A DNA stretch of 64,000 nucleotides, from contig CAVWLA010000003.1 in the NCBI GenBank assembly GCA_963755825.1, positions 1,472,940 through 1,536,939 on the forward strand, read 5' to 3'. The DNA comes from an uncultured Acidobacteriota bacterium (GTDB lineage: Bacteria > Acidobacteriota > Thermoanaerobaculia > Multivoradales > UBA5704). Below the pieces are notes generated by a model. The model made no database searches. It was not told where the DNA came from and saw only the letters and a list, made by a program, of their open reading frames with translations. Positions 37,990 through 59,320 of this stretch are shown piece after piece; positions within the stretch are counted from its first letter, which is position 1; every line of letters starts with the position of its first letter. The position numbers were made by a program, and so were the translations under genes.

Positions 37990-38055
37990 TGGCGCACCGC
38001 GCAAGGCAGACGGGCGGCGTGCCGGCGGATGGCGCCCTCCTCATCCTTCCATTTC

Positions 38056-38147
38056 GTCATCCTGAGCGCGGCGAAGGATCTCGGCGGCCGGAGGCTCGCG
38101 AAGCCCGCCGCTCCCCCGCCCGGATCCTTCGCTGCGCTCAGGATGAC
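38056..38147. repeat. REP-like palindromic element: 25-bp inverted arms GTCATCCTGAGCGCGGCGAAGGATC / GATCCTTCGCTGCGCTCAGGATGAC (one mismatch) around a 42-nt GC-rich loop
   Basis: Read directly. It sits in the rmlA-rmlD intergenic space and produces the two short opposite-strand ORFs 38029..38188 and 38041..38235 (...VILSAAKDL..., ...HCHPERSEGS...LRRAQDDE...). I recall these strings as translations of a palindromic repeat family seen in several high-GC soil-bacterial genomes. Confidence 0.7.
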
Positions 38148-38188
38148 AATGAAGCGTCGTCGCGGATCTCCTCCCCGGCGTCCGCGTC

Positions 38189-39055: not shown

Positions 39056-40039
39056 ATGAAGTCCGCACTGATCACCGGCATCACCGGCTTCGCCGGCTCT
39101 CACCTGGCGGAGCTCCTGCTCGCCGAGCATCCCGACGTGCAGGTCTTCGGCACCTATCGCTGGCGCAGCCGCATGGAGAACATCGAGCATCTCGGCGACC
39201 GCGTGACGCTCCTCGAGGCCGACCTCCGCGACTACACCTCGATGCACGGCGCCGTCGCCAAGTCGCGCCCGGACTACATCTTCCACCTCGCGGCGCAGAG
39301 CTTCGTGCCCTCCTCGTGGAGCGCGCCGTCGGAGACGCTGGCGACCAACGTCGCCGGCGAGACCAACCTCTTCGAGGCGGTCCGCGCGCTCGAGATCGAC
39401 CCGGCGATCCAGATCGCCTGCTCGTCGGAGCAGTACGGCCTGGTGCTCCCCACCGAGGTGCCGATCAAGGAGACCAACCCGCTGCGGCCGCTGTCGCCCT
39501 ACGCGGTCTCCAAGGTGGCGCAGGACTTCCTCGGCTACCAGTACTTCCAGAGCTATGGCATGCGGGTCATCCGCACCCGCGGCTTCAACCACACCGGCCC
39601 GCGGCGCGGCCAGGTCTTCGTCACCTCCAACTTCTGCAGCCAGGTGGCGGCGATCGAGGCCGGCCTCCAGGAGCCGGTCATCCGGGTGGGCAACATCGAC
39701 GCCATCCGCGACTTCACCGACGTGCGCGACATGGTGCGCGCCTACTGGCTGGCGGTGACCCGCGCCAAGCCCGGCGAGGTCTACAACATCGCGAGCGGCG
39801 AGGGGATCACCATCCGCGCCCTGCTCGACAAGATCCTCGCCCTCTCGCAGGTCGAGGTGAAGGTCGAGGTCGACCCGTCGCGGCTCCGGCCGTCGGACGT
39901 CGAGATCCTCATCGGCGACAGCTCGAAGTTCCGCGCCGACACCGGCTGGGCGCCGCAGATCCCCTTCGACCAGACGGTCGGCGACCTCCTCCAGTACTGG
40001 CGCGAGCGGATGTCGCGCCGCCGCCCCGCCGGCGCCTGA
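39056..40039 (+). CDS. gmd: GDP-mannose 4,6-dehydratase
   Basis: MKSALITGITGFAGSHLAELLL, YAVSKVAQD and FNHTGPRRGQVFVTSN, matching the Gmd FNHESPRRGxTFVTRK block; 327 aa. Confidence 0.75.
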   Translation: MKSALITGITGFAGSHLAELLLAEHPDVQVFGTYRWRSRMENIEHLGDRVTLLEADLRDYTSMHGAVAKSRPDYIFHLAAQSFVPSSWSAPSETLATNVAGETNLFEAVRALEIDPAIQIACSSEQYGLVLPTEVPIKETNPLRPLSPYAVSKVAQDFLGYQYFQSYGMRVIRTRGFNHTGPRRGQVFVTSNFCSQVAAIEAGLQEPVIRVGNIDAIRDFTDVRDMVRAYWLAVTRAKPGEVYNIASGEGITIRALLDKILALSQVEVKVEVDPSRLRPSDVEILIGDSSKFRADTGWAPQIPFDQTVGDLLQYWRERMSRRRPAGA

Positions 40040-40055
40040 GGGCATCGCACCGGCC

Positions 40056-40976
40056 ATGCGCGTCCTCGTCACCGGCATCGGCGGCTTCGTCGGCAAGAAT
40101 CTGGCGCGCTGGCTGATCGCCCATGGCGATCAGGTGAGCGGCACCTATCTCGACGAGCGGCCGGACCTCGCCGGCGCCGACCTCTACGAGGCCGACCTGT
40201 TGGACACCCCGGCGCTCGAGCGGGCCATCCGCGAGGCCGACCCGCAGGCGATCGTCAATCTGGCCGGGCTGTCGCACGTCGGCGAGTCGTGGAAGCGGAT
40301 GGCCGAGTACTTCCGCGTCAACGTCCTCGGCACCGAGAACCTGCTGCGCGCCGCGGCGGGGCGGCGGGTGGTGATCGCCTCCTCGGCCGAGGTCTACGGC
40401 AAGGTGCCGGCCGAGCGGCAGCCGATCGGCGAGGACGAGCGGGTCGATCCGCACACCCCCTACGCCCTCACCAAGGCGGCCGCCGAGCGCTTCGCCTTCG
40501 CGCATGGCGCCGTCGTCGCGCGCTCCTTCAATCTGGTGGGGCCGGGGCAGGCGCCGACGTTCGCCCTCCCCGCCTTCGCCGCCCAGCTCGCCGCCATCGC
40601 CCGCGGCGAGCAGGAGCCCGTCCTCCGCGTCGGCAACCTGTCGGCCCGCCGCGACTTCATCCACGTCGACGACGGCGCCGCGGCCTACCGGGTGCTGGCG
40701 GAGCACGGCCGCCCGAGCGAGGTCTACAACATCGCCTCCGGCAGCGCCCCCTCGATCGGCGAGGCGCTCGAGCGGCTGATGGCGATCTCAGGCGTCGAGG
40801 CGCGGGTCGAGCCCGACCCGGCGCGCCTGCGGCCGGACGACCTGCCGCTCCTGGCGGGCGACAACCGCCGCCTGCGCGCCCTCGGCTGGCGGCCCGAGCG
40901 CAGCCTGGACGACGCTCTCGCCGACCTCTGGGCTACCCTGCGGCCGGCGCCGGCCGCAGAGCCGGCCGCAGGATAG
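40056..40976 (+). CDS. NAD-dependent epimerase/dehydratase, GDP-4-keto-6-deoxy-D-mannose reductase (Rmd)-like
   Basis: MRVLVTGIGGFVGKNLARWL, YALTKAAAE and the SDR extended fold; sits immediately after gmd. Confidence 0.65.
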   Translation: MRVLVTGIGGFVGKNLARWLIAHGDQVSGTYLDERPDLAGADLYEADLLDTPALERAIREADPQAIVNLAGLSHVGESWKRMAEYFRVNVLGTENLLRAAAGRRVVIASSAEVYGKVPAERQPIGEDERVDPHTPYALTKAAAERFAFAHGAVVARSFNLVGPGQAPTFALPAFAAQLAAIARGEQEPVLRVGNLSARRDFIHVDDGAAAYRVLAEHGRPSEVYNIASGSAPSIGEALERLMAISGVEARVEPDPARLRPDDLPLLAGDNRRLRALGWRPERSLDDALADLWATLRPAPAAEPAAG

Positions 40977-40989
40977 GCGGCGCTCCCGG

Positions 40990-41427
40990 TCAGTTGAAGG
41001 CGGGCTCGGCGGCGGGGCTCTCGATCGGCAGCTTGCGCCGCTCGGCGAGCCAGGCGCGCGCCTCGCGCTCGGTGGGGTGGAACTCGAACGGCACCTTGGC
41101 GATGCCGCCCATGCGGAACATGTTCATGGCGGTGAAGATGAGCTTGGCGAGCACCCGCGCCTTGAGCGGCGCCTGGTAGATCGCGATGCCGCCGAGCGGC
41201 AGCTGCTGCAGCCCGTTGCCCGCCTCCTTGCGCCCGCCGGGCTCGATGGTGTCGAGCTCCGAGAGGTCGATCAGGTAGAAGATCCGCTCCTTGCCCCGCA
41301 CGTAGTCGAAGTGGATGCGATTGAGCTCGCGCGCATCCGCCTCGGTGACCACCCCGCTCAGCTTCATCCGCAGCAGGTCCGGCTCCTCGAAGCCGGTCCA
41401 GTGCGTCCCGACGAAATCATCAGCCAT
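40990..41427 (-). CDS. Hypothetical protein (145 aa), last gene of the minus-strand TonB-C paralog array
   Basis: High GC3; no family recognised. Confidence 0.45.
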   Translation of the reverse strand: MADDFVGTHWTGFEEPDLLRMKLSGVVTEADARELNRIHFDYVRGKERIFYLIDLSELDTIEPGGRKEAGNGLQQLPLGGIAIYQAPLKARVLAKLIFTAMNMFRMGGIAKVPFEFHPTEREARAWLAERRKLPIESPAAEPAFN

Positions 41428-41531
41428 TGAAAGTTCTCCCTCTCCGTTCGTTCCCTAAGTGCGCATTCACACGCGAACCGGGACTCCTGCGGAGAGGGAG
41501 ATCAGCGGGCGGTAAAGACGAGGTCGTACCG

Positions 41532-41786
41532 TTAGCGCGAGGGCGACGGTGTGCCGCCGAGCTTGGCGGGCTCGAAACGCGAGTCGCAGAGGGCGTCGAG
41601 GCCGCTGGCGTCGAGGTCGCGCAGGCCGCTCGTCCGCCGCAGCTCGGCCTCGCGGATGACGCCCCGCGGATCGATGATCATCTCGTAGCCGGCGGTGCCG
41701 GGGCCCGCGGTCTGGCCGAGGTACAGCGGATAGCGGGCGACGGCCTCCTCGAGGCCTCGCCCAGCTTGCGCAGCACGTGCTATCAC
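41532..41786 (-). pseudogene. Remnant of a TonB-C-domain paralog (84 aa, truncated 3' duplicate)
   Basis: ...GYEMIIDPRGVIREAELRRTSGLRDLDASGLDALCDSRFEPAKLGGTP aligns with the C-terminal TonB-C repeat of the upstream gene (...GFVRQPEILRSSGSHDLDASALQAVCDWTFQPAMLASKPV...) but stops prematurely. Confidence 0.4.
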
Positions 41787-41814
41787 GGCATCGGCCGCGC
41801 GGCGGCCTCCGACC

Positions 41815-42971
41815 TCACCGGCGGCCGACCTCGAAGTTGACGGTCAGCGTGTAGTAGGCCAGCACCGGCTTCGAGGCCAGCATCGCCGGCTGGAACGTCC
41901 AATCGCAGACCGCTTGGAGGGCGCTCGCGTCGAGGTCGTGCGAGCCACTGCTGCGGAGGATCTCGGGCTGGCGGACGAAACCGCCGGTGTCGATGATGGA
42001 ATCGAGGATGACCGTGCCGGTGGTATTTGGATGGACCATCGACCTCGGGAAGCGCGGAGGAGGGTGCTTGGAGACGCGCGGTCGCGTGACCTCGTCCTTG
42101 CCCCGTCCGAATTCCTCGGGCTGTAGGGAGCCCGATCGATTCCGGTCGAGGAGATCTCCCGGCTTGCCGGTCGGCTCGTTGGCGCCGAGGTGGTAGAAGC
42201 TCGCGACCGGCTTGCCGCCGACCATCGCCGGCTGGAAGGTCCAGCCACGGACGGCCTGGAGCACCGCGTAGGTCATCGATCGAAAGCTGCCTCCGATCAC
42301 CACCGGATCGCGCGGCCGGCCCTCCGCGTCGACGACGATCTCGGCGGCCGCCCACCGCGGACCGAGCGATGGAGGAGCGCGCCGGGCATCTCGGGAGCGG
42401 CGCCCGAGAGCCGTTGCGCCCGCCGCGTCGCAACGCCGGGGGTGCTCTCTCCCGGCGCTGCCGCCGCGGCAGCCGCCGCAACCTGGTGCACGTCGAGACC
42501 GGCAGGCGACGCGCCGAGCTGGCGCAACGGGTGGGCAACGAGCGCCTTTCCCACCTCGCTGAAGGACGAGGGATCGACGTTGCCGAGCGGATGGGCATCG
42601 AGGTTCTGCGCCACCTGCCAATCCCACGCCGCCTCCTCCTGCCGGCCGAGGCCGGACTCGGCGAGCGCCCGGTAGGCAACCAGGCGCGCCAGCGGCGGTG
42701 CGTCGATTCTGCCCTGCAGGACCCTGGCGATCGCGGGCTCGATCGCGTCGACCGCCGCCTGCCACTCGCCGCGCTGCAGAGACTGCTCGATCTGTTTGCC
42801 GGTCTCCTCGGCCGCCTTGATCTGCGCCGCCTGGGCCGCCACCAGCTCCGGCGCGGCGTCTGCCGGCGGCTTCTCTGCCTTAGCGGAAGCCGCCGCGAGC
42901 ACCAGCGACAAAACGGTGAGGAAGATCGTCGCCATCCATCTCATGGGTTTCTCCATCGCGGCTCCTTGCAT
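41815..42971 (-). pseudogene. Secreted tandem TonB-C-domain protein, paralog 1, with an apparent frameshift (or sequencing error) near 42.33-42.42 kb
   Basis: The signal peptide and N-terminal domain lie in ORF 42297..42971 (MRWMATIFLTVLSLVLAAASAKA...AWDWQVAQNLDAHPLGN...AHPLRQ). The two TonB-C-like repeats lie in a different frame, ORF 41815..42765 (PPSLGPRWAAAEIVVDAEGRPRDPVVIGGS...WTFQPAMVGGKPV... and TGTVILDSIIDTGGFVRQPEIL...WTFQPAMLASKPV...). Both halves align colinearly with the intact paralog 43086..44600. Confidence 0.5.
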
Positions 42972-43085
42972 CGAGTGGTCGCGGGAAGCCTCGCCGTCGG
43001 CGGCCGGAGGCTTCTATCCCACCCGAGCGAGGTGCGACCGTCGAACGACCTCGGCACCGTCGACGCCGCCATGCGGCGCCGCGGA

Positions 43086-44600
43086 TCACTCAGGTGAGAA
43101 TTCGATTGTAACGGAATAGAAGGAATTGACCGGCGCGCCGCCCTGGATCGCCGGCTGAAAGCGGAAGCCGCAGAGCGCGTCGAGGGCCGCGGCGTCGAGG
43201 TTGGGCGAGGCGCCGGGGGAGCGCACCTCGGGCTGGCGGAGGCCTCCCGCGGCGTCGACGACGCCGGAGACGACGACGGCGTCGAGCAGCCGCTGCGCCT
43301 TGAGGAAGCGCGGGTAGGCCGGCCGCGCGTGCTCGACCACCCGCGGGCGGAGCGGCGGCGCGGCGGCCCGGCCCTCGCGCTCACGGCGCCGATCGCCGCC
43401 GCCGTGGACCACCCAGCGCTCGCTCCCCCAGCGGTTGCGGTCGAGGAGCGCCCCCGCGGCGCCGTAGGGTCCGAGATCGGCGTCGTAGAGCGCCGGCGAG
43501 AGGACCTCGGCCGCCTGCCAGCGGCAGATAGCGGCGGGAGCGGCGCCCACGCTGGCCGGCGCCAGGATGGCTTCGGCGAGAGCGCGGAGAGCGAGGGCGG
43601 CGCCGAGGAGGGCGGGGCTGCGCTCGGCGCCGTCGAGCGCCTCCTGCCAGCGCCGCGCCGCGAGCCGACCGGCCTCGGCGAGGCGGCCGGCGCGGAGGAG
43701 CGCCTCGACGGCGCCGAGATCGACCTTCGCGCTGCCGCCGGCGCCGGCGGTAGCCAGCAGGCCGGCGAGCGGCAGGCCGGCCGGCGGATCGACGGTGAGC
43801 TCGGCGAGGACGGCGACCGGAGCGCCGCCGGCGGTCGCCGGCGCGAACCGGAAGCCGCGCAGGCTCTCCAGGGCGCGCACGGCGGCGGCGCCGGTGCGGC
43901 CGGCGACGACCACCGGCTCGCGCACCCGGCCAGCCGCATCGACGGCGAGCTCGATGCGCAGGCTCGGCGGAACTCCCTGGTGGCCCTGGCGCAGGAGCGC
44001 CGGGGCGGGGAGCTCGCCGGCCAGCCGGCGCGGCGGGCTGGCGCCCTCGGCGGCGTGGATCGCCACCCCGTCGGGCGCCGCGCCGGGTCGCCGCAGCGGG
44101 TGCGCCGCGAGGAGGGCGCCGGCGGCGCCGAAGCCGCCGAGCTCCGCGCCGGTGAGCACGCCCGGCGTCAGGTTCTCGGCCTCGTGCCAGTGCCAGAGGG
44201 CGTCCTCGGCGCTCCCCGATCCGGCCTCGGCGAGGGCGAGGCGAGAGAGCGAGTCCGCGAGGTCGAGCGCCGGCGCGCCGCTGGCGCCCAGCCCGAGGGC
44301 GAGCTCGGCGCGCGCGGCGGCCGCCGCCTTGGCGAAGCGGCCGGCGCGCAGGTCGCCGTCGAGCGTCGCCAGCCGGCGGGCGGGCTCCTCGATCCACGGC
44401 AGGCGCTCGGTGTCGTCGGCCCCAGCCGCCGGAGGCGCCGGCTGAGCAGCCGGCGCGGCGGATGTTGGGGCTGGCGGGGGCAAGGGAAGCGACGCCGGAG
44501 CCATGGGCGGCGCCGGAGGTGCCGCGAGGAGACCGCCGCCGACTCCAGCGAATACCGCGAGAAGAACGGCGAGGAGCGGCAGGAGGCGGCGGTTCGGCAT
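43086..44600 (-). CDS. Secreted Ala-rich protein with two C-terminal TonB-C-like domains, paralog 2 (504 aa)
   Basis: Signal peptide (MPNRRLLPLLAVLLAVFAG) and an Ala/Pro-rich region. TonB-C signatures: PAYPRFLKAQRLLDAVVVSGVVDAAGGLRQPEVRSPGASPNLDAAALDALCGFRFQPAIQGGAPVNSFYSVTIEF plus an upstream degenerate copy. Confidence 0.7.
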   Translation of the reverse strand: MPNRRLLPLLAVLLAVFAGVGGGLLAAPPAPPMAPASLPLPPPAPTSAAPAAQPAPPAAGADDTERLPWIEEPARRLATLDGDLRAGRFAKAAAAARAELALGLGASGAPALDLADSLSRLALAEAGSGSAEDALWHWHEAENLTPGVLTGAELGGFGAAGALLAAHPLRRPGAAPDGVAIHAAEGASPPRRLAGELPAPALLRQGHQGVPPSLRIELAVDAAGRVREPVVVAGRTGAAAVRALESLRGFRFAPATAGGAPVAVLAELTVDPPAGLPLAGLLATAGAGGSAKVDLGAVEALLRAGRLAEAGRLAARRWQEALDGAERSPALLGAALALRALAEAILAPASVGAAPAAICRWQAAEVLSPALYDADLGPYGAAGALLDRNRWGSERWVVHGGGDRRREREGRAAAPPLRPRVVEHARPAYPRFLKAQRLLDAVVVSGVVDAAGGLRQPEVRSPGASPNLDAAALDALCGFRFQPAIQGGAPVNSFYSVTIEFSPE

Positions 44601-44689
44601 GGCCGGTCGGCGACGTCGGTCGAGGTTCGCTCGCGGCCGGCCGGCGAGGGTCCGCCGGCCGGCGGGGCGGATGGTAGCCTAGCGCGCCG

Positions 44690-46822
44690 ATGCCCCTCTC
44701 GCACCGGATGCTCGAACGGCCGGCCCGCGCCTCCCGGCGGCCAGGCCGCCGCGGGCTCGCGAGCTCCCTCGCGGCGCTCGCCCTCGGCGCGCTGGCGGCG
44801 GCGCTCGCCGGCTGCGGCACCGGCGAGAGCCCTCCGGCGCCGGCCGCGGCGCCGACAACCGGCTCCGCGGCGACGCCGGCGGCGGGCGCCGGACCGGCCA
44901 TCGAGCCGCGCATCGCCCGCGCCGCGCTCCCCGGCCGGCGCGTCGTCTTCGTCGGCCTCGACGGCGCCGACTGGGACCTCCTCGACCCCTACATGGCGGC
45001 CGGCGTGATGCCGAGCTTGGCGGCGCTCGTCCGCGACGGGCGGAGCGGCGTGCTGACGACCATCCATCCGCCGCTCTCGCCGCTCGTCTGGACGACGATG
45101 ATGACCGGCGTCGGCCCGCTCGAGCACGGCGTCCTCGACTTCACCCGCTTCGATCCGCAGAGCGGCGCCCGCGAGCCGATCACCAGCGCTGAGCGGCGGG
45201 TGCCGGCGATCTGGAACATGGCGACGGCGGCCGGCCGGAGCGTCGCCGTCTTCGGCCTCTGGGCGACCTACCCGGCCGAGCCGGTGCGCGGCGTCGTCGT
45301 CTCCGACCGCCTCTTCTCCTTCGAGTTCGGCGAGGCGGCGCCGCCTCCCGGCGCCGTCTACCCCGCCGGCCGCGAGGCGTGGGCGAAGCAGGCGCTCGCC
45401 GCGGCCGAGGCGGCGAACGGCTACGCCGCCCTCCACGCCTACTTCCCCTGGCTCGGCGAAGCGGAGTTCCGCCGCGCCCTCGCCGCGCCGAACGCCTTCG
45501 CGCAGCCGGTCTCGGCGCTGCGCCGCATCCTCGTCGAGACCGACGTCTACCACCGCCTGGCGGCCGATCTGCTGTCGCGGCCGGCGCCGCCGGCCGGCGA
45601 GCTGCCCGACCTCACCGTCCTCTACATCCAGGGGACGGACGCCGTCGGCCACCTCTTCGCGCCCTACGCGCCGCCGCGCCTGCCGCGCGTCTCGGCGGAG
45701 GATTTCGCGCGCTACGGCGACGTGCCGCGGCGCTACTTCGCCGCCGTCGACGCGCTGGTGGGCACCATGCGGCGGCTCGCCGAGCGCTCGGGGGCGGTCC
45801 TCTTCATCGCCTCCGATCATGGCTTCCGCTGGCACGACCGGCCGGACGAGGCGCCGCGATTCGCCGCCGCCACCGCCGGGCGCTGGCACCGCGAGGAGGG
45901 CATCTCGCTCCTCTGGGGACCGGGGATCGAGCGCGGCGCGAGCGGCAACCACGCGGACCGCGCGAGCGTCCGTCAGGTCTGCTCGACCCTCCTCGCCCTC
46001 CTCGGTCTCCCTCCCGATCGCCGCCTCGCCGGGCCGCCGCTCGCGGGGGTCAGCGCGCCGGCGCTCGCCGACGTCCACTACGAGCAGGGCTTCCGCCCAT
46101 CGGCCGCCGGCGGCTCGCGGGCGGCGGCGCCCGCCGATGCCGAGGCGGTGGCCAAGCTGCGCGCTCTGGGCTACATCGGCGCCGCCGAGCCGGCGCGCGC
46201 AGCCGCTCCGCCTGCCGGCGGCGCTCCGGCGAGCGACGCCACCCGCACCGCCGGCTCCTACGACAACGAGGGGTTGATCCTCCGCGAGGCGGGGCGCCCG
46301 GCCGAGGCCGCCGCGGCCTTCGAGCGCGCCGTGGCGCGCGATCCCCACAACGCCTCGGCGCTATGGAACCTGAGCGACCTCCTGGCGGCGGGCGGCGGCG
46401 GCTCGCCGGCGGACCTCGACCGCGCCGACCAGCTGCTCGTCGAGGCCATCGCCGCCGGGCTGCCGGACGGCGCCGCCCATCTCCGCGAGCGGGCGGCCCG
46501 CGACGGCCGCGAGGGCGACCCCGAGCGCAGCCTCCGCCTCCTCGCCGCGGCGACCGCGGCGCGCCCCGACGACGCCGAGATCTGGCTGCTCGCCGGCCGC
46601 TACCGCGTCGAGCGGCGCGACTGCCGAGGGGCGCTCGACGCCTTCGAGCAAGCCGAGCGGCTCGCCCCCACCAACGCCATCAGCTTCGGCTCGTCGGCCC
46701 TCGCTCGGCTCTGTCTCGGCGACGCGCCGGGCGCCGCGGCCGATCTCCGCCGCTCCCTCGCCCTCGACCCCGACCAGCCCGCCCTGCGCCGGGCGCTCAC
46801 CGAGATCCAGGCCGGCCACTGA
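44690..46822 (+). CDS. Type I phosphodiesterase / nucleotide pyrophosphatase (AlkP-superfamily) lipoprotein with C-terminal TPR repeats
   Basis: LAGCG lipobox; VVFVGLDGADWDLLDPYM...HPPLSPLVWTTMMTG...FIASDHGF; ...LRALGYIG; then TPR-like helices (DPHNASALWNLSDLL...). Confidence 0.7.
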   Translation: MPLSHRMLERPARASRRPGRRGLASSLAALALGALAAALAGCGTGESPPAPAAAPTTGSAATPAAGAGPAIEPRIARAALPGRRVVFVGLDGADWDLLDPYMAAGVMPSLAALVRDGRSGVLTTIHPPLSPLVWTTMMTGVGPLEHGVLDFTRFDPQSGAREPITSAERRVPAIWNMATAAGRSVAVFGLWATYPAEPVRGVVVSDRLFSFEFGEAAPPPGAVYPAGREAWAKQALAAAEAANGYAALHAYFPWLGEAEFRRALAAPNAFAQPVSALRRILVETDVYHRLAADLLSRPAPPAGELPDLTVLYIQGTDAVGHLFAPYAPPRLPRVSAEDFARYGDVPRRYFAAVDALVGTMRRLAERSGAVLFIASDHGFRWHDRPDEAPRFAAATAGRWHREEGISLLWGPGIERGASGNHADRASVRQVCSTLLALLGLPPDRRLAGPPLAGVSAPALADVHYEQGFRPSAAGGSRAAAPADAEAVAKLRALGYIGAAEPARAAAPPAGGAPASDATRTAGSYDNEGLILREAGRPAEAAAAFERAVARDPHNASALWNLSDLLAAGGGGSPADLDRADQLLVEAIAAGLPDGAAHLRERAARDGREGDPERSLRLLAAATAARPDDAEIWLLAGRYRVERRDCRGALDAFEQAERLAPTNAISFGSSALARLCLGDAPGAAADLRRSLALDPDQPALRRALTEIQAGH

Positions 46823-46917
46823 AGCGCGGCCCGGCCACGAGGACGCCCTCCAAAAAAGAGGAACCGGGAGCCTCGATCACGAACCGCCAGATCAAGAGCT
46901 GGTGCAGCAGGGGGCGA

Positions 46918-48372
46918 TCAAGGGCTGTGCGTGGCCTGCTTGAAGGCGGCCAGGAGGCGGCGCGCTAGCGCGGCGGTGAGACGCTCTTCGCCGGCCGCCT
47001 GGCGGAAGAGGGTCAAGGCCGCGAGGCGCTCGCGCTCCACCCTCTGCGCGGCGAAGATCGGAGCGGACTCGGCCGCGAGCGCCTTGACCTCCGCCGTCTT
47101 CCCCTCGCCGGCCAAGAGCGCGGCGAGCTCGAGCGTCGCGAGCGCCGCGTCGTAGGCGATCCTGCGCTCGACGAGCTCGTCGCGCACTTCGCGCAGGGCG
47201 GCTGCCGCCTCGTCCGGCCGGCCGCTCGCGGCGGCGATCCGCCCTTCCAGCCAGCGGAGGCGCGTGCGGTGGAGCCCCTTGCCCGAGCGCTCGGCCAGCC
47301 CGCGCACCTCGGCGACCAGCGGCTCCGCCTCGGCGTGGCGGCCCACCGCGTCGAGGTTTTCCGCCAGGTTGAACCGCAGGGCGAACCAGACCCTCTCGTC
47401 GGCAGGGTCGGCGAGGGGGATCGCCCGCTCGAGCGTGGCGATCGCCGTCTCGTAGTCGCCGACCTCCTCCAGCGTCTTCGCCTTCTTGACCAGAATTCTC
47501 GCGACGGCGTTGGGAGGACAGATGGCGAGGGCCTGATCGAGCAGGGCGAGAGCTTCCGGGACCCGCCGCTCACCCCGGCACAAGGAAGCTTCGAGGTCGA
47601 GCCGGCGCGAGGCGTCGAGCAGGCCGTGCTCGTCGTCCGCTCCGAGGGGCCAAGCGGCCCGCGAGCGGGCGAAGGCCTCCTTCGCCGCCGGCAGCTCGCC
47701 GCTCGCCCGGAGGGCGTTGCCGTGGAACGCCTCGCAATGGCCCTGCAGCTCCGAACGCCATCGCTCGCCGCCAGGTGCGAAGCGGGCGATCTCCACGGCG
47801 AGCCGGGCGAGCGCGATGGCCGGACGCGGATCGTGCGCCGCCGCCGCCTCGCTCTCGCCGCAGAGGAGCACGGCGAGGGCCCAGCTCCGGAACCGCTCGC
47901 CCGCCCGCACCAGACCGAGGCGCTCCTCCTGCGAGAAGGGCTCGAGGAGCTGGCGGAGGCCCGGGGCCGCCAGCCGGTCCGCCGCGCTGGGAGCGGGCGG
48001 CGCGGGCTCCGCACGGGCGAGGAGGAGCGCCGCGCGCGTGAAGCCTTCCGCCGCGCGGCCGGCGCCGGCGGCGAGGGCGTCGGCCTCCGCGCCCGGCGGC
48101 CCGCCGGCGCGGAGCGTCCCGCCGGCGCCGATGACCTGCCGGACGACGTGGAGGCAGGCGAGGAGAGGATCGAGGAGAGGCAGCGGGAAGCGCAGGGCGG
48201 CCATCAGGCGGTCGAGGCTGCGGCCGGACGGCGCCACCTTGCCGGTCTCGTACTCGCAGAGCGAGCTGGCCGCGACGCCTGCCCTCTCGGCCAGCTCGGC
48301 CTGCGTCTCGCGGTGAAACCAGCGGAGCAGGCCGAGCGCCGCGCCCAGATCTACGGGGTCTCTCGCCGTCAT
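46918..48372 (-). CDS. XRE-HTH + TPR-repeat transcriptional regulator, paralog A (484 aa)
   Basis: ATG at 48372. HTH_XRE LRWFHRETQAELAERAGVAASSLCEYETGKVAPSGRSLDRLMAAL followed by ~400 aa of TPR-like helices. Colinear with paralog B: shared blocks ILVKKAKTLEE.GDYE.A.ATLERA, FALRFNLAENL, RLRWLEGRIAAA and ALREVRDEL. Confidence 0.75.
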   Translation of the reverse strand: MTARDPVDLGAALGLLRWFHRETQAELAERAGVAASSLCEYETGKVAPSGRSLDRLMAALRFPLPLLDPLLACLHVVRQVIGAGGTLRAGGPPGAEADALAAGAGRAAEGFTRAALLLARAEPAPPAPSAADRLAAPGLRQLLEPFSQEERLGLVRAGERFRSWALAVLLCGESEAAAAHDPRPAIALARLAVEIARFAPGGERWRSELQGHCEAFHGNALRASGELPAAKEAFARSRAAWPLGADDEHGLLDASRRLDLEASLCRGERRVPEALALLDQALAICPPNAVARILVKKAKTLEEVGDYETAIATLERAIPLADPADERVWFALRFNLAENLDAVGRHAEAEPLVAEVRGLAERSGKGLHRTRLRWLEGRIAAASGRPDEAAAALREVRDELVERRIAYDAALATLELAALLAGEGKTAEVKALAAESAPIFAAQRVERERLAALTLFRQAAGEERLTAALARRLLAAFKQATHSP

Positions 48373-48567
48373 CGCCCTCCCATGGGACTCACCGATTCGC
48401 CGTGCCCGCGAAGCGCCGGAGCGATCCCTCCTCGCGCAAAGCCTAACTCTCTTCGGCCTTGGGCCGAACATTTCGGGGTTACCCTGGCGCACCATTGCCG
48501 GAAAGGGAGCGTGCCCGGGCGGCCATGGAGGCCGCCGGGCGGCGCCTCCCCCGAAAGGAGCAAATCC

Positions 48568-48876
48568 ATGTCCCATTCCATCCGCCGCAGGATCGCCACC
48601 CTCGCCCTCGGCGCGCTGCTCGCCGCCCCGTGGGCCGCACAGGCCGGGGAGCGGCGCCCGGCCGCGCCGCGAGGCGCGCGAGCGGCAGCTCAGGTGCCCG
48701 CCGGTCCCCTCGGTCGCCTCTGGGGTTCCCTCCAGGCGCTCTGGAGTGAGGAGGGGTGCACGATCGATCCGAGCGGTGCCCGCTGCGCCAGCCACGCGCA
48801 GGGCGCCGGCACGCCCATCAGCCCGGCTCCCGCGGGATGCACGATCGACCCCAACGGCGCCGCCTGCTCGCGGTAG
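48568..48876 (+). CDS. Small secreted peptide precursor (102 aa) with two CTIDP(S/N)GA(R/A)C repeats
   Basis: aaaggag SD 7 nt upstream of the ATG. Sec signal peptide MSHSIRRRIATLALGALLAAPWAAQA|GE. The predicted mature ~76-aa part contains two Cys-bracketed 10-residue loops (GCTIDPSGARC, GCTIDPNGAAC). Lies between the two HTH-TPR regulators. Confidence 0.6.
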   Translation: MSHSIRRRIATLALGALLAAPWAAQAGERRPAAPRGARAAAQVPAGPLGRLWGSLQALWSEEGCTIDPSGARCASHAQGAGTPISPAPAGCTIDPNGAACSR

Positions 48877-48937
48877 CTACAGAGGAGCTCCCCTCTCCCG
48901 GCGAGGACCTCACCGGGGGAGGGCGGCCGCCGCGCCC

Positions 48938-50425
48938 TCAGGCGGCTTCGAAGCGGAGCTGCGGCTGGTGGCGCGCGCGGTAGAGGTAGCGGACCACGTC
49001 CCGCGCGATCTCGGGCGTCGCCGACTCGCGCTCCGCGGCGCGGCGGAAGAAGGCGAGCGCCTTCCGCGCCTCGGCGTGGACCTCCTGGCGCTCGAAGACG
49101 GCGGCCATCTGCCGCGCCAGCGTGCGGACGACGTCCATCCGCCCCTGGACCGCGTACTGCTCCGCCAGCTCGAGCGAGACGAGGGCCATGTCGTAGGCCA
49201 TCCCCCGCGTGGCGAGCTCGCCGCGGACCTTGCCGAGGGCGGCGATCGCCTCCCCGGTCCGCCCGAGGCCCGCGGCGATCCGCCCGTCGAGCCACAGCAG
49301 GCGCACGCGGTAGAGGTCGCCGCGCAGCCGGAGCGCCAGCGTCCGCACCTCGGCGACCATCGGCTCGGCCTCGGCGTGGCCGCCGACGTGCAGGAGGTTC
49401 TCGGAGAGATTGAAGCGGAGGGCGAAGCGCAGGTGAGGGTCGCCCGCCGCCTCGACCAGCGGCTTCGCCTCCCGCAGGGTCGCCACGGCGGCCGCGTAGT
49501 CGGCCGTCTCCTCGAGCGTCTTCGCCCGCTTGATGAGGATGCGCGCCGAGGAAGCGGCGCCCGGGGAGACGGCGAGCGCGCGCTCGAGCAGGGCGAGGGC
49601 CTCGGGGAATCGCCGCTGGGCTCGGCGCAGAGAGGCCTCGAGGTCGAGGACGCGGGAGGGGTCGAAGGGGCTCGGCCCGGCAGGCTCCTCGCTCCAGAGC
49701 GCCCGCGCGCGGCGGAAGGCCTCGTCGGCGGCGGGCAGGCTCTTGCCCTGCACCCGCCGGGCGTTGGCGACGAACGCCCAGGCGTGGCCCTGGGCGCGGA
49801 GCCCCTCGTCGCCCTCGACGCCGCGGGCGATCCACAGCGCCAGGTCCGCCAGCTCGGCGGCCTGGGAGGGCTCGTGGGCCGCCGCCCTCTCGCTCTCCTC
49901 GCAGATCAGGGCGCAGAGCGCGGCGGTCTTCCGCTCGGGGATGCAGTCGAGGAGCGGCCGCCGGCGCGCCGCAGGATGGGCGGCGAGCATCTCCCAGACC
50001 TCGCGGGCCACGCCCTTCGCCTCCTCCACCTCGGCACGGGCGGCGTGGACGGTCGCCGCCGCGCGCAGGAAGGTGGAGCTGGCGCGCGCGCCGTCCGCCG
50101 CCAGCCGCTCGATCGCCTGGCGCGCCGCCGCGCGCGCGTCCCGCGGGGCGCGGCGGGCGGCGATCTCGGCGCGCCCCTCGCGCAGCAGATCGAGCACGCG
50201 GTCGACGATGGAGTCCGGCAGGTTCATCGCCGCGGCGAAACGGCCGAGCGCCTCGCGCGTCGGCACGCTCTTGCCGCGCTCGAGCTCCGAGATCCAGCCG
50301 GGCGTCAGGCCGGTCAACGTGGCCAGCTCCTGCGCGCTGCGCAGACCGGCGACGCGCCGCAGGATGACGAGCGCCTCGCCTTCCACGGGCGGGCCCTCGG
50401 TCATCTCCTCTTCATCCTCTCTCAT
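48938..50425 (-). CDS. XRE-HTH + TPR-repeat transcriptional regulator, paralog B (495 aa)
   Basis: ATG at 50425. HTH_XRE LRSAQELATLTGLTPGWISELERGKSVPTREALGRFAAAMNL and a TPR-like body colinear with paralog A. Confidence 0.75.
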   Translation of the reverse strand: MREDEEEMTEGPPVEGEALVILRRVAGLRSAQELATLTGLTPGWISELERGKSVPTREALGRFAAAMNLPDSIVDRVLDLLREGRAEIAARRAPRDARAAARQAIERLAADGARASSTFLRAAATVHAARAEVEEAKGVAREVWEMLAAHPAARRRPLLDCIPERKTAALCALICEESERAAAHEPSQAAELADLALWIARGVEGDEGLRAQGHAWAFVANARRVQGKSLPAADEAFRRARALWSEEPAGPSPFDPSRVLDLEASLRRAQRRFPEALALLERALAVSPGAASSARILIKRAKTLEETADYAAAVATLREAKPLVEAAGDPHLRFALRFNLSENLLHVGGHAEAEPMVAEVRTLALRLRGDLYRVRLLWLDGRIAAGLGRTGEAIAALGKVRGELATRGMAYDMALVSLELAEQYAVQGRMDVVRTLARQMAAVFERQEVHAEARKALAFFRRAAERESATPEIARDVVRYLYRARHQPQLRFEAA

Positions 50426-50636
50426 GCGCTGGTCCTGAAACAAAGGATATCCGCCGCGGCAGCGGCGTGACAGTTGAAGCGCGTCGGAAACCCGGAAAAG
50501 CGGGGCGGATCGCCGAACGGCGCTTTTTTTCGCAGCAACCGCTTGGTTGCGGCGGCGCAGGCCCGTACCGTCCTCCTCGCGCCGGCCGTGCTCGATGGCT
50601 GCCCTCATGGCGGCCTCGCCGGCGGGGAGCCTGCGG

Positions 50637-52067
50637 ATGGGAGAAACGACGAATGCCGTGCTCGATCAGCTTCGATCCCTGGCCGCCGTCCTGGCCTGCG
50701 TCCGCGGCCGCCTGATCGAGCTGTCAGCGGCCCTGCCGGAGGAGGAGCCGGCGGCCGAGGGACCGGAAGGCGCGGAGGTCGAGCCGGGCCTGCGGTCGGT
50801 CCTCTCCTGCGTGCTCACCGACTCGATCGAACCGGCGATTCGCGACCTGCTCCTGGCCGCCGAGCACGAGCCGGCGCAGCCGCCAGCGGCGACTCCCGCC
50901 GCACGGACCCGTGAGGCCGATGAGCCCGGCTACCGGGCTCTCTTCGCGCGGCTCGCGACCAGCCTGCCCCGCTCTGCCGCTGCCGCCGAGCGCACCCGCC
51001 GCGAGACGGACCGCCTCTACCGCGATCTCGTCGCGTCGACGAGAACCGACCGGCTGGAGGCGACGGGAGAGCTCCGCTTCCATCGGCTCGACCTCGTGGA
51101 GCGCCTTCTCGAAGACGCTCGAGGCGCGCTGCCTTCCGACCCAGGCTCGGCCGAGGAGCTGGCGAGCCTCGCCGCGGCGATCGCCGGCCGGCTCGCCGAT
51201 GCCGACGAGAGCTCGGAGGGCAGAGCGCGGGCGGCCTGCTGGATCGCGCACGCTCGCCGCATCGCCGGCGATCTCGCTGGCGCCGAGAGGGCCCTCTCCG
51301 GAGCGACGCTCTACGCCGCGGGATATTCCGACGAGCAGGCCGAGCTCTGCCGCGCGGTCGCCCTCCTGCGCTGGGAGCAGGGGCGGATGGAGGAGGCGAG
51401 AGCGATGCTCGAACGCGCCGAGGAGCTCTGGGCTGGCGAGGAAGCGCCTCACGAGCAGGGAGCCTGCCAGGTGCTCGCGGCGCTGCTCTCGATCGAAGAG
51501 GGCAGAGCGCGGGATGCGGTGAGACCGCTGCGCGATGCGCTGCCGCTCCTCATCGATCCCTGGCTCACCGTCTACGGCCGCCTCGCGCTGGCGCTCGGCT
51601 TGGCCGAGAAGGGACAGGCGAAGAGAGCGCGGGAGCAGCGCGGCGAGAGCGGGCGGTCGGCGCCGCTCGCGCCACCGGCGGCGCACCTCTTCGCGCTCCA
51701 TCTCGAGGCGAGGATCGCCTTGAGCCTGGGCGAGCACGCCGCGGCGAGCGCGATGCTCGAAGACCTGCGCCGCGAGGCGATCGAGCGGCGGTGGCTGCCA
51801 GAGGCCGCGCTCGCGACGCTCAACCTCGCCCGCCTGGACATCGAACGCGGGTCGGAGCCGGAGGCGGCGGCGGAGCGCCTGGCCGAGCTGGAAGCGATCT
51901 TCACGGGATCTGAGCCGCTGGACGGCCTCGTCGCGGCCTTGCGGGAATTCCCGCAGCAGATCGCCGCCGGCGAGAGCCTCGCGGAGTTCACCCCGTCTCT
52001 TGCGGCGACCATGCTGCGGCTGCTGCGGCTGCGTGGCGTTCGCGGCGGGGCGCTCCCGTTCGCCTGA
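50637..52067 (+). CDS. TPR-like helical protein without HTH, paralog C (~476 aa; start uncertain, ATG at 50637 after a gggag SD)
   Basis: All-helical; resembles the TPR bodies of A and B (LERAEELW, RLALALGLAEKGQ, LEARIALSLGEHAAA) but has no DNA-binding domain. Divergent from regulator B. Confidence 0.55.
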   Translation: MGETTNAVLDQLRSLAAVLACVRGRLIELSAALPEEEPAAEGPEGAEVEPGLRSVLSCVLTDSIEPAIRDLLLAAEHEPAQPPAATPAARTREADEPGYRALFARLATSLPRSAAAAERTRRETDRLYRDLVASTRTDRLEATGELRFHRLDLVERLLEDARGALPSDPGSAEELASLAAAIAGRLADADESSEGRARAACWIAHARRIAGDLAGAERALSGATLYAAGYSDEQAELCRAVALLRWEQGRMEEARAMLERAEELWAGEEAPHEQGACQVLAALLSIEEGRARDAVRPLRDALPLLIDPWLTVYGRLALALGLAEKGQAKRAREQRGESGRSAPLAPPAAHLFALHLEARIALSLGEHAAASAMLEDLRREAIERRWLPEAALATLNLARLDIERGSEPEAAAERLAELEAIFTGSEPLDGLVAALREFPQQIAAGESLAEFTPSLAATMLRLLRLRGVRGGALPFA

Positions 52068-52133
52068 CGCCTCGCGATCCGGCCGATATCCGATAGAATT
52101 ACAAGCCGCCAACCCGCTCGAGGAGCCATCCGC

Positions 52134-52310
52134 ATGGCGATCCGCCCCTTCACCGCTTCCGTCAGCTATCGAAATCGAGAAGGCGCCCTCCTCGAGGAGG
52201 AGATCCCGGTCCTCGCCGAGAACTACGAGACGGCGAACCGCCTCGCCTTCACCTACGTCCTGCAGGTCCTGAAGCTCCGCGAGTTCGAGCTCCGGCTCGT
52301 CGGCTCCTGA
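52134..52310 (+). CDS. Small hypothetical protein (58 aa; absent from the ORF track)
   Basis: gaggag SD 9 nt upstream of the ATG, high GC3, TGA at 52308 (MAIRPFTASVSYRNREGALLEEEIPVLAENYETANRLAFTYVLQVLKLREFELRLVGS). Confidence 0.45.
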   Translation: MAIRPFTASVSYRNREGALLEEEIPVLAENYETANRLAFTYVLQVLKLREFELRLVGS

Positions 52311-52472
52311 AGTCGGCTCCCGAGGCCGGCTCCTGAGCGCTGGCGCCGCCCGGCGGCGTGAGCCGTTGTGGTAGCGTTCCTCCCCGCAACATCACCGTAT
52401 TCGGCCAACACCCCCGAGCGGCTGCGCACGAGCGCGGCCGGCCGCGGGCGATCCGACCCAAGGAGGTCTCCG

Positions 52473-55283
52473 ATGCAGACGCTCGGCCGCTGTCTCCTTC
52501 TCCTCACGCTCGCCGCCGGGGTGCTCTCGCCGCTCGCCGCCCAGACCACCGGCGGCGTCGTCGGCCGGGCGACGGACGAATCCGGCGGTCCGCTGCCGGG
52601 CGTCCTCGTCGAGGCGACCGGCGCCGCTCTGCAGGGCTCGCGCAGCGCGACGACCGACGCCAAGGGCACCTACCATCTGACCCTCCTGCCCCCCGGCCAG
52701 TACACCATCAGCTTCACCCTGCAGGGCTTCGGCAGCGAAACGCGGCGGGCGATCGCCGTCGAGCTCGACCGCGACGCGACGATCGACGCGGTCTTGAAGC
52801 CGCGCGCCGCCGAGGAGATCACAGTCGTCGGCGAGGCGCCGGTCGTCGACACCACGACGACCGAGCTGGGGACGAACCTCGACAGCCGCCAGATCGAGAC
52901 CCTGCCGACCGGCCGCAACTATTCGTCGGTGGTGCAGATCACCCCCGGCGTCTCCTCCGACGCCAACCCCGACAACTCCCAGCAGACGACGATCACCGTC
53001 TACGGCTCGTCGGGAGCGGAGAACGCCTTCTACATCGACGGCGTCAACACCACCAACGTCGAGTACGGCTTCCAAGGCAAGGAGCTCAACTTCGAGTTCA
53101 TCGAGGCGATCGACGTCAAGACCGGCGGCTACGAGGCGGAGTTCGGCCGCGCCACCGGCGGCATCGTCAACGTCATCACCAAGTCCGGCGGCAACGCCTT
53201 CCACGGCGACGCCTTCGGCTACTACGACAACGACTCGCTGCAGTCGAGCGCCAAGACGGTGTTCTCGAACAGCGGCACGGTCGAGGGCTTCACCCGCGAC
53301 GACTACGGCGCCGACCTCGGCGGCTACCTCGTCAAGGACAAGCTGTGGTTCTTCGGCGCCTACGACAAGGTGAGCAACACGACGAAGAGCGCGCTGCCGT
53401 CGGGGCCGGCGATGGGCGACGTCGTCAGCTCCGACAGCACGCACGATCTCGGCGCCGGCAAGCTCACCTACCACTTCTCCGCCAGCCAGTCGCTCATCGC
53501 CAGCTTCTTCCAGGACCCGCGGACCGACACCGGCGCCATCAACGACGCCAACCACACGTTGAACGGCGACCCGCTCACCTACACCGGCGAGCAGCAGTAC
53601 GGCGGCAAGGACTACGCCCTCCGCTACCAGGGCGTCGCCGGCTCGAGCTGGGTGTTCACCGCGCAGGCCTCGCGCCACCAGGAGCAGAACTCGGTGGGCC
53701 CCGCCTCGGCGGCCGGCGACACGATCCAGTACATCGCTTCGGACAACAAGAACTTTCAGACCGGCGGCTTCGGGCTCATCCAGGACAAGACCTTCAAGCG
53801 CGACTTCCTCGGCGGCTCGGCCGAGCGCTATCTCGGCGGCCACGAGATCAAGGGCGGCATCGAGTACGAGAAGGAGTCGGCCGACGTCGTCAAGCGCGAG
53901 TCGGGCGGCCAGCTGGTGACGGTGTACGCCAACCCGAACGATCCCAGCCAGCCGATCTACAGCCACGCCTACTGGACGACGCCGACCGCGACGGTCCCCA
54001 ACGCGCCGGTCTCGGCGCTCTTCGCCTCGCCGTCGCACAAGGTCACCACCGCCTACCTGCAGGACCGCTGGACGGCGCGCTCGAACCTCACCCTGACCTA
54101 CGGCCTGCGCTGGGACCGCCAGCAGATCATCGACGCCGAGGGTACCCAGCAGATCGACCTCAAGAAGGACTTCGCGCCGCGCCTGGGCGCCATCTGGGAT
54201 CCGCGCAGCGATCACAAGAGCAAGGTCTACGCCTCGGCGGGGCGTTTCTACGAGCAGATTCCGATGGACCTCGTCATCCGCTCCTTCTCTTTCGAGCGGC
54301 AGCCGCGCATCGTCAACTTCTCGCCCACCGACAACCATCCGGACCCCAACGCCGAGGCCATCCTGGGCACCGGCTCGACCATCCTCGGCGGCTTCACCGA
54401 GCCGGCGGACCCCAACATCGGCGGCCAGTATCTCGACGAGTACATCGTCGGCGCCGAGCGCGAGGTGCTGCCCAGCGTCTCGGTCGGCATCAAGGGGATC
54501 TACCGCAGCTACGGACAGGTGATCGAGGACTTCCTCTGCATCAACGACGGCACCTACTGCATCGGCAACCCCGGCAAGGGGATCTTCAAGCGCGACTTCA
54601 CCCTCGACTACTCGACGACCTATCCGACGCCGGCGCCGCAGCGCATCTACCGCGGCATCCAGCTCGACGTCAACAAGCGCTTCTCGAACAATTGGCAGGG
54701 GCTCGCCTCGTACATCTACTCGAAGCTCGACGGCAACTACGACGGCGAGTACTCGCCCTTCACCAACGTCGGCGCCGACCCCAACATCTCGGCCGCCTAC
54801 GACTACTACGACTTCTTCACCAACGGCACCGACCTCACCCGCATCACCAACAAGGGTCCGCTGTCGAACGAGCGCCAGCACCAGCTCAAGCTCTCCGGCG
54901 TCTACTTCACCCCCTGGAAGCTGCAGATCGGCCTCTCCGGCTACTACAGCAGCGGCACGCCGCTCACCCGCTACGGCTTCTCGGACGCCTACGGCCGCTA
55001 CGAGTTCTTCCTCACCGAGCGCGGCGCCGAGGGGCGCTCGCCGTCGATCTACGAGGCCGACCTCCACCTCGGCTATCCGCTCACCTTCGGGCCGACGACG
55101 GTCAACCTCCTCTTCGACGTCTTCAACCTGCTGAACGCCCAGCGGCCGATCCTGCTCGACGAGCGCTGGGACTTCGCCGAGGCGGACAACACCTCGCCCA
55201 CCCCCACCAACCCCGACTACAAGAGACCCATCCTGCGAACACCGCCGACCTCGCTGCGGCTGGGGCTGAGGGTGAGCTTCTAG
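52473..55283 (+). CDS. TonB-dependent outer-membrane receptor with an N-terminal carboxypeptidase-regulatory-like domain (936 aa)
   Basis: aaggagg SD and a signal peptide. CarbopepD_reg-like VVGRATDESGGPLPGVLVEA...GTYHL; plug domain (TLPTGRNYSSVVQITPGV); a large barrel ending ...LRLGLRVSF with a terminal aromatic residue. Confidence 0.85.
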   Translation: MQTLGRCLLLLTLAAGVLSPLAAQTTGGVVGRATDESGGPLPGVLVEATGAALQGSRSATTDAKGTYHLTLLPPGQYTISFTLQGFGSETRRAIAVELDRDATIDAVLKPRAAEEITVVGEAPVVDTTTTELGTNLDSRQIETLPTGRNYSSVVQITPGVSSDANPDNSQQTTITVYGSSGAENAFYIDGVNTTNVEYGFQGKELNFEFIEAIDVKTGGYEAEFGRATGGIVNVITKSGGNAFHGDAFGYYDNDSLQSSAKTVFSNSGTVEGFTRDDYGADLGGYLVKDKLWFFGAYDKVSNTTKSALPSGPAMGDVVSSDSTHDLGAGKLTYHFSASQSLIASFFQDPRTDTGAINDANHTLNGDPLTYTGEQQYGGKDYALRYQGVAGSSWVFTAQASRHQEQNSVGPASAAGDTIQYIASDNKNFQTGGFGLIQDKTFKRDFLGGSAERYLGGHEIKGGIEYEKESADVVKRESGGQLVTVYANPNDPSQPIYSHAYWTTPTATVPNAPVSALFASPSHKVTTAYLQDRWTARSNLTLTYGLRWDRQQIIDAEGTQQIDLKKDFAPRLGAIWDPRSDHKSKVYASAGRFYEQIPMDLVIRSFSFERQPRIVNFSPTDNHPDPNAEAILGTGSTILGGFTEPADPNIGGQYLDEYIVGAEREVLPSVSVGIKGIYRSYGQVIEDFLCINDGTYCIGNPGKGIFKRDFTLDYSTTYPTPAPQRIYRGIQLDVNKRFSNNWQGLASYIYSKLDGNYDGEYSPFTNVGADPNISAAYDYYDFFTNGTDLTRITNKGPLSNERQHQLKLSGVYFTPWKLQIGLSGYYSSGTPLTRYGFSDAYGRYEFFLTERGAEGRSPSIYEADLHLGYPLTFGPTTVNLLFDVFNLLNAQRPILLDERWDFAEADNTSPTPTNPDYKRPILRTPPTSLRLGLRVSF

Positions 55284-55493
55284 CGGAGAAGCATCGAGCG
55301 ACAGGGGCCGATTTCCGCGACGGCCGAAACGGGAAGCGTGGGCGCGAGCGGGAAAGGATTCGCCGCGATGAGGAAGAGACCGATCCTTCGGCTCTCCGGT
55401 CGTCGAAATGGAGAAGGACCAATGCGGGCGACGGTTGCGGCGGGAGCGATGCGGCTCGTCCTGCGCGGTGGAGGCGGAGAGTAGCCCGAGCGG

Positions 55494-59249
<3,756 letters not shown>

Positions 59250-59320
59250 GCGGTTCTCCCTTGGGCGGAAAACCGTATGCAGGGTCCGCGCCCGCCGCAG
59301 CGGCGCGAGCGCGGCGGGTT

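Follow-up and report, generated by a model that had tools for sequence, protein, structure and literature searches.

The peptide-regulator cassette

A 5.28 kb gene cassette that combines transcriptional regulators with a small exported peptide is present in the genome of an uncultured Acidobacteriota bacterium (class Thermoanaerobaculia). It lies within the 64,000 nucleotide (nt) stretch of contig CAVWLA010000003.1 that was analysed here in full and is referred to as the window. The cassette carries the genes for two regulators, A and B, each with an XRE-type helix-turn-helix (HTH) and tetratricopeptide repeats (TPR). Between these is the gene for a peptide with Cys-bracketed repeats, and beyond B is C, a relative of the regulators that has no HTH. 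The regulators and the exported peptide very probably form one functional unit. It is also possible, and is tentatively favoured here, that the cassette is a self-contained peptide-signal and receptor unit, similar in its working to the RRNPPA systems of peptide quorum sensing yet built from unrelated sequence families and belonging to a diderm phylum. The features of the cassette, in the coordinates of the window, are as follows.

46809..52088, no strand assigned: whole cassette (A, peptide, B and C), 5.28 kb, present or absent as a block
46918..48372, minus strand: regulator A, XRE HTH and TPR, 484 amino acids (aa), divergent from the peptide gene
48452..48468, plus strand: inverted repeat TTCGGCC-TTG-GGCCGAA, 5' of the peptide promoter, candidate operator
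48490..48566, plus strand: structured 5' leader of the peptide mRNA, as defined by covariance model R1, with a -10-like CACCAT at 48490-48495, the loop AUGGA at 48525-48529 and the Shine-Dalgarno GGAG at 48557-48560
48568..48876, plus strand: exported repeat peptide, 102 aa, with a signal peptide at approximately 48568-48645, a W..LW helix, loop 1 at 48754-48786 and loop 2 at 48835-48867
48938..50425, minus strand: regulator B, XRE HTH and TPR, 495 aa, convergent with the peptide gene and divergent from C
50637..52067, plus strand: C, paralog without an HTH, 476 aa, its TPR preceded by three long helices at the N-terminus

Recurrence in Acidobacteriota

A total of 305 relatives of A and B were found in the GTDB species genomes, and loci were studied from the best 80 of these. 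All 80 are from Thermoanaerobaculia, Holophagales or unclassified Acidobacteriota metagenome-assembled genomes, approximately 43 genomes together, and at least 22 of these genomes yield two to four loci. Of 79 regulator-seeded loci, 67 have a peptide gene and/or its leader immediately next to the regulator, a recurrence far beyond chance that is based on three independent detectors: tblastn, a scan for open reading frames (ORFs) with the motif and a signal peptide, and the covariance model of the leader. An earlier note, made from the sequence of the window alone, had proposed the synteny of a small signal-peptide ORF with HTH-TPR genes as a check of its own interpretation, and this synteny is strongly conserved.

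The gene order is fixed as C, B, peptide, A. The C-like gene is divergent from the B-type gene, the peptide gene is convergent with B, and the A-type HTH gene is divergent from the peptide gene. Contigs that were retrieved through the peptide have the same gene order, and in at least 25 loci the direct divergent neighbour of the B-type gene is C-like. The gene in the B position is always full length, at approximately 480–570 aa. The gene in the A position always starts with an XRE HTH, however it is found in three length classes, and the TPR part is therefore dispensable in some cassettes. Beyond the TPR paralogs and the peptide, no other consistently linked gene families were found using a crude ORF caller, including no biosynthetic, immunity, maturation or dedicated export genes conserved near the cassette. 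No further copies of the cassette are present in the 64-kb window.

In L002, L003 and an 18-kb contig of P0019, a distant cassette adjoins a CHASE2 protein and type IV secretion or conjugation-like genes (T2SSE ATPase, VirB4/TrbE), which hints at carriage by an integrative element in that genome. At L001 8892-11227, the regulators are split into ORFs of 131–170 aa beside an intact peptide gene; this fragmentation could be due to decay or to indel errors in the assembly.

Cassette boundaries and flanking genes

Two JGI metagenome contigs, L084 and L085, have 82–87% nucleotide identity to the window. They are colinear with it over 37540-46808 and again from 52089, with approximately 36 nt in place of 46809..52088. 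The cassette-less junctions are at L084:8431-8468 and L085:489-526. Because these contigs are without exactly 46809..52088, the cassette is a discrete indel, gained or lost as a single unit. Neither terminal repeats nor a target-site duplication were seen at its ends. The following features make up the chromosome on either side.

43086-44600, minus strand: TonB_C-domain protein
44690-46822, plus strand: type I phosphodiesterase fused to TPR repeats
52134..52310, plus strand: 58-aa ORF, a conserved small gene outside the cassette, with no signal peptide and no family match
52368-55283: CarboxypepD_reg-type TonB-dependent receptor

The TonB gene, the phosphodiesterase-TPR gene, the 58-aa ORF and the TonB-dependent receptor gene form a conserved neighbourhood that is independent of the cassette. 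The 58-aa ORF has a mate in its 90%-identity cluster on each of L084 and L085. On these contigs it is preceded by the phosphodiesterase gene, and in L026 and L037 the gene before it is C-like. The earlier note had counted the 58-aa ORF as part of the locus and had drawn attention to the TonB-dependent receptor downstream. The ORF is indeed a real, conserved gene, but both it and the receptor are retained in L084 and L085 where there is no cassette. They are therefore rejected as parts of the system, and the receptor is a flanking gene that is unrelated to the cassette.

Downstream of the TonB-dependent receptor gene is a hybrid sensor histidine kinase of 1,689 aa (55494-60563, minus strand). 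Histidine-kinase-like ORFs are near the cassette in approximately 15 loci, which may only reflect the abundance of this family.

The exported repeat peptide

The peptide gene has a Shine-Dalgarno sequence, AAAGGAG, 7 nt before its ATG. The N-terminus of the peptide is of the Sec type, having a basic n-region, a hydrophobic h-region and an AQA site, and its two Cys-bracketed loops are GCTIDPSGARC and GCTIDPNGAAC. In the DNA these loops are a direct repeat with 81-nt spacing. The ribosome-binding site, the signal peptide and the paired loops are thus all present as had been described in the earlier note.

A word-based search identified 19 homologs that have in common the signal peptide, the W..LW helix and two to four copies of G-C-x-I-D-P-x-G-(x)-C. 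Across these homologs W59, G63, C64, D67, P68, G70, C73, G90, C91, D94, P95 and G97 are invariant. A HMMER profile search of 1.84 billion cluster representatives returned 1,822 peptide clusters at E<=1e-3, counted at 50% identity, with 755 of these at E<=1e-10. Nearly all are 90–170 aa in length. No model in Pfam or NCBIfam matches the peptide family.

Every one of the 53 curated peptides has the features of a signal peptide: a basic n-region, at least 10 hydrophobic residues in a row and a small-x-small site. In 52 of the 53 the Cys residues of the mature part are even in number, as expected for disulfide pairs. The repeat unit, with the consensus [N/E/A]-G-C-x-[I/L/V/A]-D-P-x-G-x-C, is present twice in 21 peptides, three times in 24 and four times in 8, and the last unit is 0–7 residues (mostly 1–3) from the C-terminus. 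Some of the peptides have a His at the x of DPxG. Loops are more similar within a peptide than between peptides at both variable positions (0.50 versus 0.14 at C+1; 0.49 versus 0.20 at the x of DPxG), which was not reached in any of 1000 permutations. From the sequences, this likeness fits repeated copies of one signal, or recent duplication.

Tandem diverged peptide genes are also seen, with three in L041 (6582-7924) and two each in L055, L008 and L065. Each of the tandem genes in L041 has its own leader match, two of which are weak (E 0.002–0.007).

The leader RNA and promoter elements

Almost every peptide gene that was found is preceded by a leader of approximately 73 nt. Conservation across diverged paralogs covers approximately 75 nt ahead of the start codon. 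Covariance model R1, representing this leader, has a single match in the window (E 1.2e-10) and 67 matches in 83 sources. Of the 67, 63 are positioned a few bases 5' of a peptide ORF or in the equivalent position on the peptide strand. The leader folds into a long imperfect hairpin with lower stems. Its apical stem, GCGGCC/GGCCGC, closes an AUGG-type loop and is more than 90% paired, with G-U wobbles. Pairing and covariation are above those of all 500 shuffles and all slid controls, in an alignment that was fitted to the model and is biased towards it. The minimum free energy z-scores are -3.0 to -3.9 for the six loci that were folded, and in several of these the 5' CUCC of the leader pairs with the Shine-Dalgarno sequence. 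RNAalifold found little structure in MAFFT alignments of the leader, due to register shifts, and the covariance-model alignment is needed.

There is no Rfam 15 family match within 43000-56000 at E<=1, save a chance snoRNA match elsewhere. Since it has no Rfam match, the leader is a candidate new cis-regulatory RNA. Other interpretations of this sequence were considered. The G-U wobbles, and the position between a promoter-like element and the Shine-Dalgarno sequence, disfavour a DNA palindrome or operator. A CsrA-type GGA site is a weak explanation, as no more than 22 of the 67 apical regions contain GGA. Reading GGCAC... as a sigma-54 element was rejected by eye, there being no -12 TTGC and the spacing being wrong.

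The sequence 5' of the peptide leader contains the -10-like CACCAT, an AT-rich element and locus-specific inverted repeats. Different inverted repeats are found in the same place in other loci, such as GGGTGAATTCACCC in L053 and CAGGTGAA-GAAA-TTCACCTG in L048. The divergent HTH protein could plausibly use these repeats as operators. Separately, the intergenic region between B and C (50426-50636) and its equivalents in approximately 15 loci have TGTCAC, approximately 17 nt, CACnnT or TATCCT, and then TTCAGAA(A)C in the 5' untranslated region. This region is common to B-type genes and is promoter-like.

Regulators A, B and C

All five of the ORFs that the earlier note had described (A, peptide, B, C and the 58-aa ORF) are gene calls with identical boundaries in the source record, an NCBI/ENA contig of 3.08 Mb. 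Their third-codon-position G+C is 0.86–0.96, which is of the coding type, in a window of approximately 73% G+C. The homology of the regulators and C was investigated using Pfam, NCBIfam and profile searches against the PDB sequences. Both A and B match HTH_3 over the Pfam cut-off. For TPR_12, A is over the cut-off, B is slightly under it (29.3 versus 30.1 bits) and C has a weak match. A and B align from end to end at 44% identity (E 2e-79), and they are the colinear XRE-HTH and TPR paralogs that had been proposed.

The position of C as a third paralog had likewise been proposed, and this is less evident from pairwise comparison, where its similarity to A and B is weak (E 7e-6 and 0.002). At the profile level the relationship is firm. 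An hhalign comparison of the A/B family with the C family has a probability of 99.75% and E 3e-27 over 350 columns, aligning A 127–484 to C 115–476. C is therefore a genuine distant, HTH-less paralog of the A/B TPR body.

A, B and C all lack a transmembrane-like segment, their maximum Kyte-Doolittle scores over 19 residues being 1.6 or less. The AlphaFold2 models of A and C are confident, with pLDDT values of 89.9 and 87.9. In the model of A, the HTH is followed by two long helices and a TPR superhelix; in that of C, three long helices replace the HTH. Against the PADLOC defence models, only A and B have matches, by way of their HTH domains and to models that contain an HTH; neither C nor the peptide has any, nor has the 58-aa ORF.

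Elsewhere in the window is a standalone XRE-HTH protein of 163 aa (19241-19732, minus strand). It has no adjoining peptide gene, and the only leader-model match nearby is at chance level (E 0.7).

Comparison with known systems

The RRNPPA systems (NprR-NprX, PlcR-PapR, Rap-Phr, AimR-AimP, Rgg-SHP and PrgX) share several features with the cassette. Both combine an HTH and a TPR superhelix in a cytoplasmic protein, the superhelix of the cassette being predicted with high confidence, and both include a paralog without the HTH, as in Rap. C is predicted to resemble Rap in having a three-helix N-terminus and then TPR. A small gene for a Sec-exported propeptide is located beside the receptor gene, being divergent or convergent in the cassette, and several diverged copies can be present per genome. 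Repeated signal units and tandem propeptide genes are a further likeness, as RRNPPA propeptides can contain several pheromones and some Rap systems have several propeptide genes (PMC9765709, PMC11343458).

The differences are also considerable. RRNPPA is described as a family of the Bacillota and their mobile elements (PMC9765709, PMC11343458, PMC10075063), whereas the host of the cassette is a diderm acidobacterium and no copies of the cassette were found on the viral contigs and plasmids searched. The cassette propeptides are 74–140 aa with two to four Cys-bracketed loops of 9–10 residues, unlike the linear, Cys-free 5–10-mers of RRNPPA. On this point the RNPP interpretation of the earlier note is not supported. 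There are two HTH-TPR genes and an HTH-less paralog for each peptide, rather than one receptor, and the peptide gene is preceded by the conserved structured mRNA leader. Full-text literature searches found no report of RRNPP from Acidobacteriota and no link of XRE-TPR proteins to Acidobacteria peptides.

Structural comparison using Foldseek gives Rap of pLS20 bound to Phr* as the top match for C, which also matches RapJ, RapH, RapF and MalT domain III. The top structural matches include NprR, PlcR, Rap and AimR, and the top two for A are peptide-binding TPR grooves. The folds modelled for A and C are compatible with RRNPPA-like receptors, without being distinguished from other TPR arrays. The RNPP-type interpretation that had been suggested is partly supported, by the conserved synteny of the peptide with HTH-TPR genes, by the paralogy of the HTH-less sibling and by the precedents for repeated signal units and multiple propeptide genes. 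Generic TPR arrays are matched as well as the RRNPPA receptors.

MalT/LAL-type and other TPR regulators resemble A and B in that an all-helical TPR sensor domain is joined to a DNA-binding domain. The cassette regulators, however, have no STAND NTPase domain or LuxR-type HTH, their HTH being of the XRE type and N-terminal. The TPR domains of eukaryotic LGN/Pins resemble them in fold only, with unrelated biology. Against the PDB sequences C had no meaningful match, the two to phenylalanine ammonia-lyase being at chance level (E 0.09–0.2).

Proposed mechanism

If the cassette is a signalling unit, the peptide gene would be transcribed from its own promoter, with the locus-specific inverted repeat as the likely operator for the divergent HTH protein A. 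The structured leader would gate translation, in many loci through the pairing of its 5' CUCC with the Shine-Dalgarno sequence. The pre-peptide would be exported by Sec and its two to four C-x-[ILVA]-D-P-x-G-x-C units would form disulfide loops, from which proteolysis would probably free several copies of one signal. The re-imported and possibly reduced signal, or the unexported precursor, may then bind the TPR superhelix of B and/or A and so alter DNA binding. The Rap-like protein without an HTH, C, may be a further binding target and would then act on a protein partner.

Several lines of evidence point to signalling. The linkage of the peptide to the regulators is tight and repeated, with fixed order and orientation. 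The cassettes have diversified in multiple copies and are inherited as a block. The modelled folds resemble a peptide-binding type, including a Rap-like paralog, and the repeated units have a Rap-Phr precedent. No conserved immunity, maturation or export genes were found alongside. A, B and C are without a transmembrane-like segment while the peptide has a signal peptide, and the variable loop positions are more alike within than between peptides.

Other observations weigh against this interpretation. There is no membership of the RRNPPA family by sequence: where the earlier note had looked to profile searches for RNPP membership, the Pfam, NCBIfam and PDB-sequence profile searches gave generic HTH and TPR matches only. 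Generic TPR proteins (LGN, APC subunits and MalT) score equal to the RRNPPA receptors, and peptide receptors therefore cannot be told from them by fold. The pheromones known from RRNPPA systems are short, linear and Cys-free, and are imported by Opp in monoderms. The cassette has no linked importer, of the Opp type or otherwise, and its peptide must cross or remain in a diderm envelope. The likeness of the loops within a peptide could come from recent tandem duplication alone. Lastly, 12 of the 79 loci (approximately 15%) have no adjoining peptide, some of these being on truncated contigs, and a scan near their regulators for alternative small secreted Cys ORFs found none.

Alternative functions

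The peptide may instead be a regulated secreted effector. A, B and C would then sense another protein or a small ligand and control a peptide whose site of action is extracytoplasmic. Such a peptide might be antimicrobial or serve in competition, might be a loop module resembling those of protease inhibitors, or might be an adhesin or part of a matrix. This is nearly as likely as signalling. A predicted promoter of its own, a candidate operator and an elaborate translational leader are what would be expected of a tightly controlled output gene. Disulfide-bracketed loops, here with an even Cys count in all but one of the curated mature peptides, are typical of extracellular effectors. The lack of a linked importer fits as well, and regulators that do not bind peptides are represented among the structural matches by MalT domain III. 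An effector does not readily account for two or three dedicated TPR paralogs per small peptide, with several diverged units per genome. The cassette also has no conserved genes for immunity, maturation or dedicated export, and the best-matching folds include many peptide-binding TPR grooves, among them the top two for A.

Two further functions are much less probable. The two Cys and one Asp of each loop, with the His at the x of DPxG in some peptides, could be those of a periplasmic metal-binding or metallophore-like peptide, taken up via the TonB and TonB-dependent receptor whose genes flank the cassette in the window. This is improbable, because those flanks are incidental: the TonB, phosphodiesterase, 58-aa ORF and receptor start keep their order in related contigs without the cassette, and a TonB-dependent receptor or TonB is near only approximately 5 of 83 loci. 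XRE-TPR proteins are not known to be metal sensors. The repetition of a unit two to four times behind a conserved helix is also reminiscent of the multi-core precursors that occur in the biosynthesis of ribosomally synthesised and post-translationally modified peptides (RiPPs), with the W..LW helix as the leader recognition element and the repeats as modified core peptides. Of the functions considered, this is the least credible, since no modifying enzymes are linked to the cassette; neither these nor a protease or transporter are conserved in or beside it. The N-terminus also has all of the features of a Sec signal peptide rather than those of a cytoplasmic leader.

Implications

A peptide-signal and receptor unit remains the favoured reading for this cassette. 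A bolder and rather doubtful proposal extends it to the Thermoanaerobaculia and Holophagales as a whole. These would have a large and so far unrecognised family of genetically encoded, disulfide-cyclised, nonapeptide-like signals, made in several copies per Sec-exported precursor, with cognate cytoplasmic HTH-TPR receptors and a Rap-like modulator. RRNPPA would thereby have a diderm counterpart, either independent or separated from it very long ago, carried on mobile 5-kb cassettes as several orthogonal channels per genome, with a new RNA leader gating production.

The cassette represents a large unannotated system in any case. Should the peptide be an effector, three things are still new: an unannotated peptide family with over 1,800 clusters, a lineage-specific expansion of HTH-TPR regulators and an undescribed structured mRNA leader. 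The Acidobacteriota are abundant in soil and genetically poorly understood. A widespread, multi-copy receptor-propeptide cassette in this phylum would make communication by ribosomal peptides in diderm soil bacteria, and the route by which such peptides would re-enter the cell, testable.

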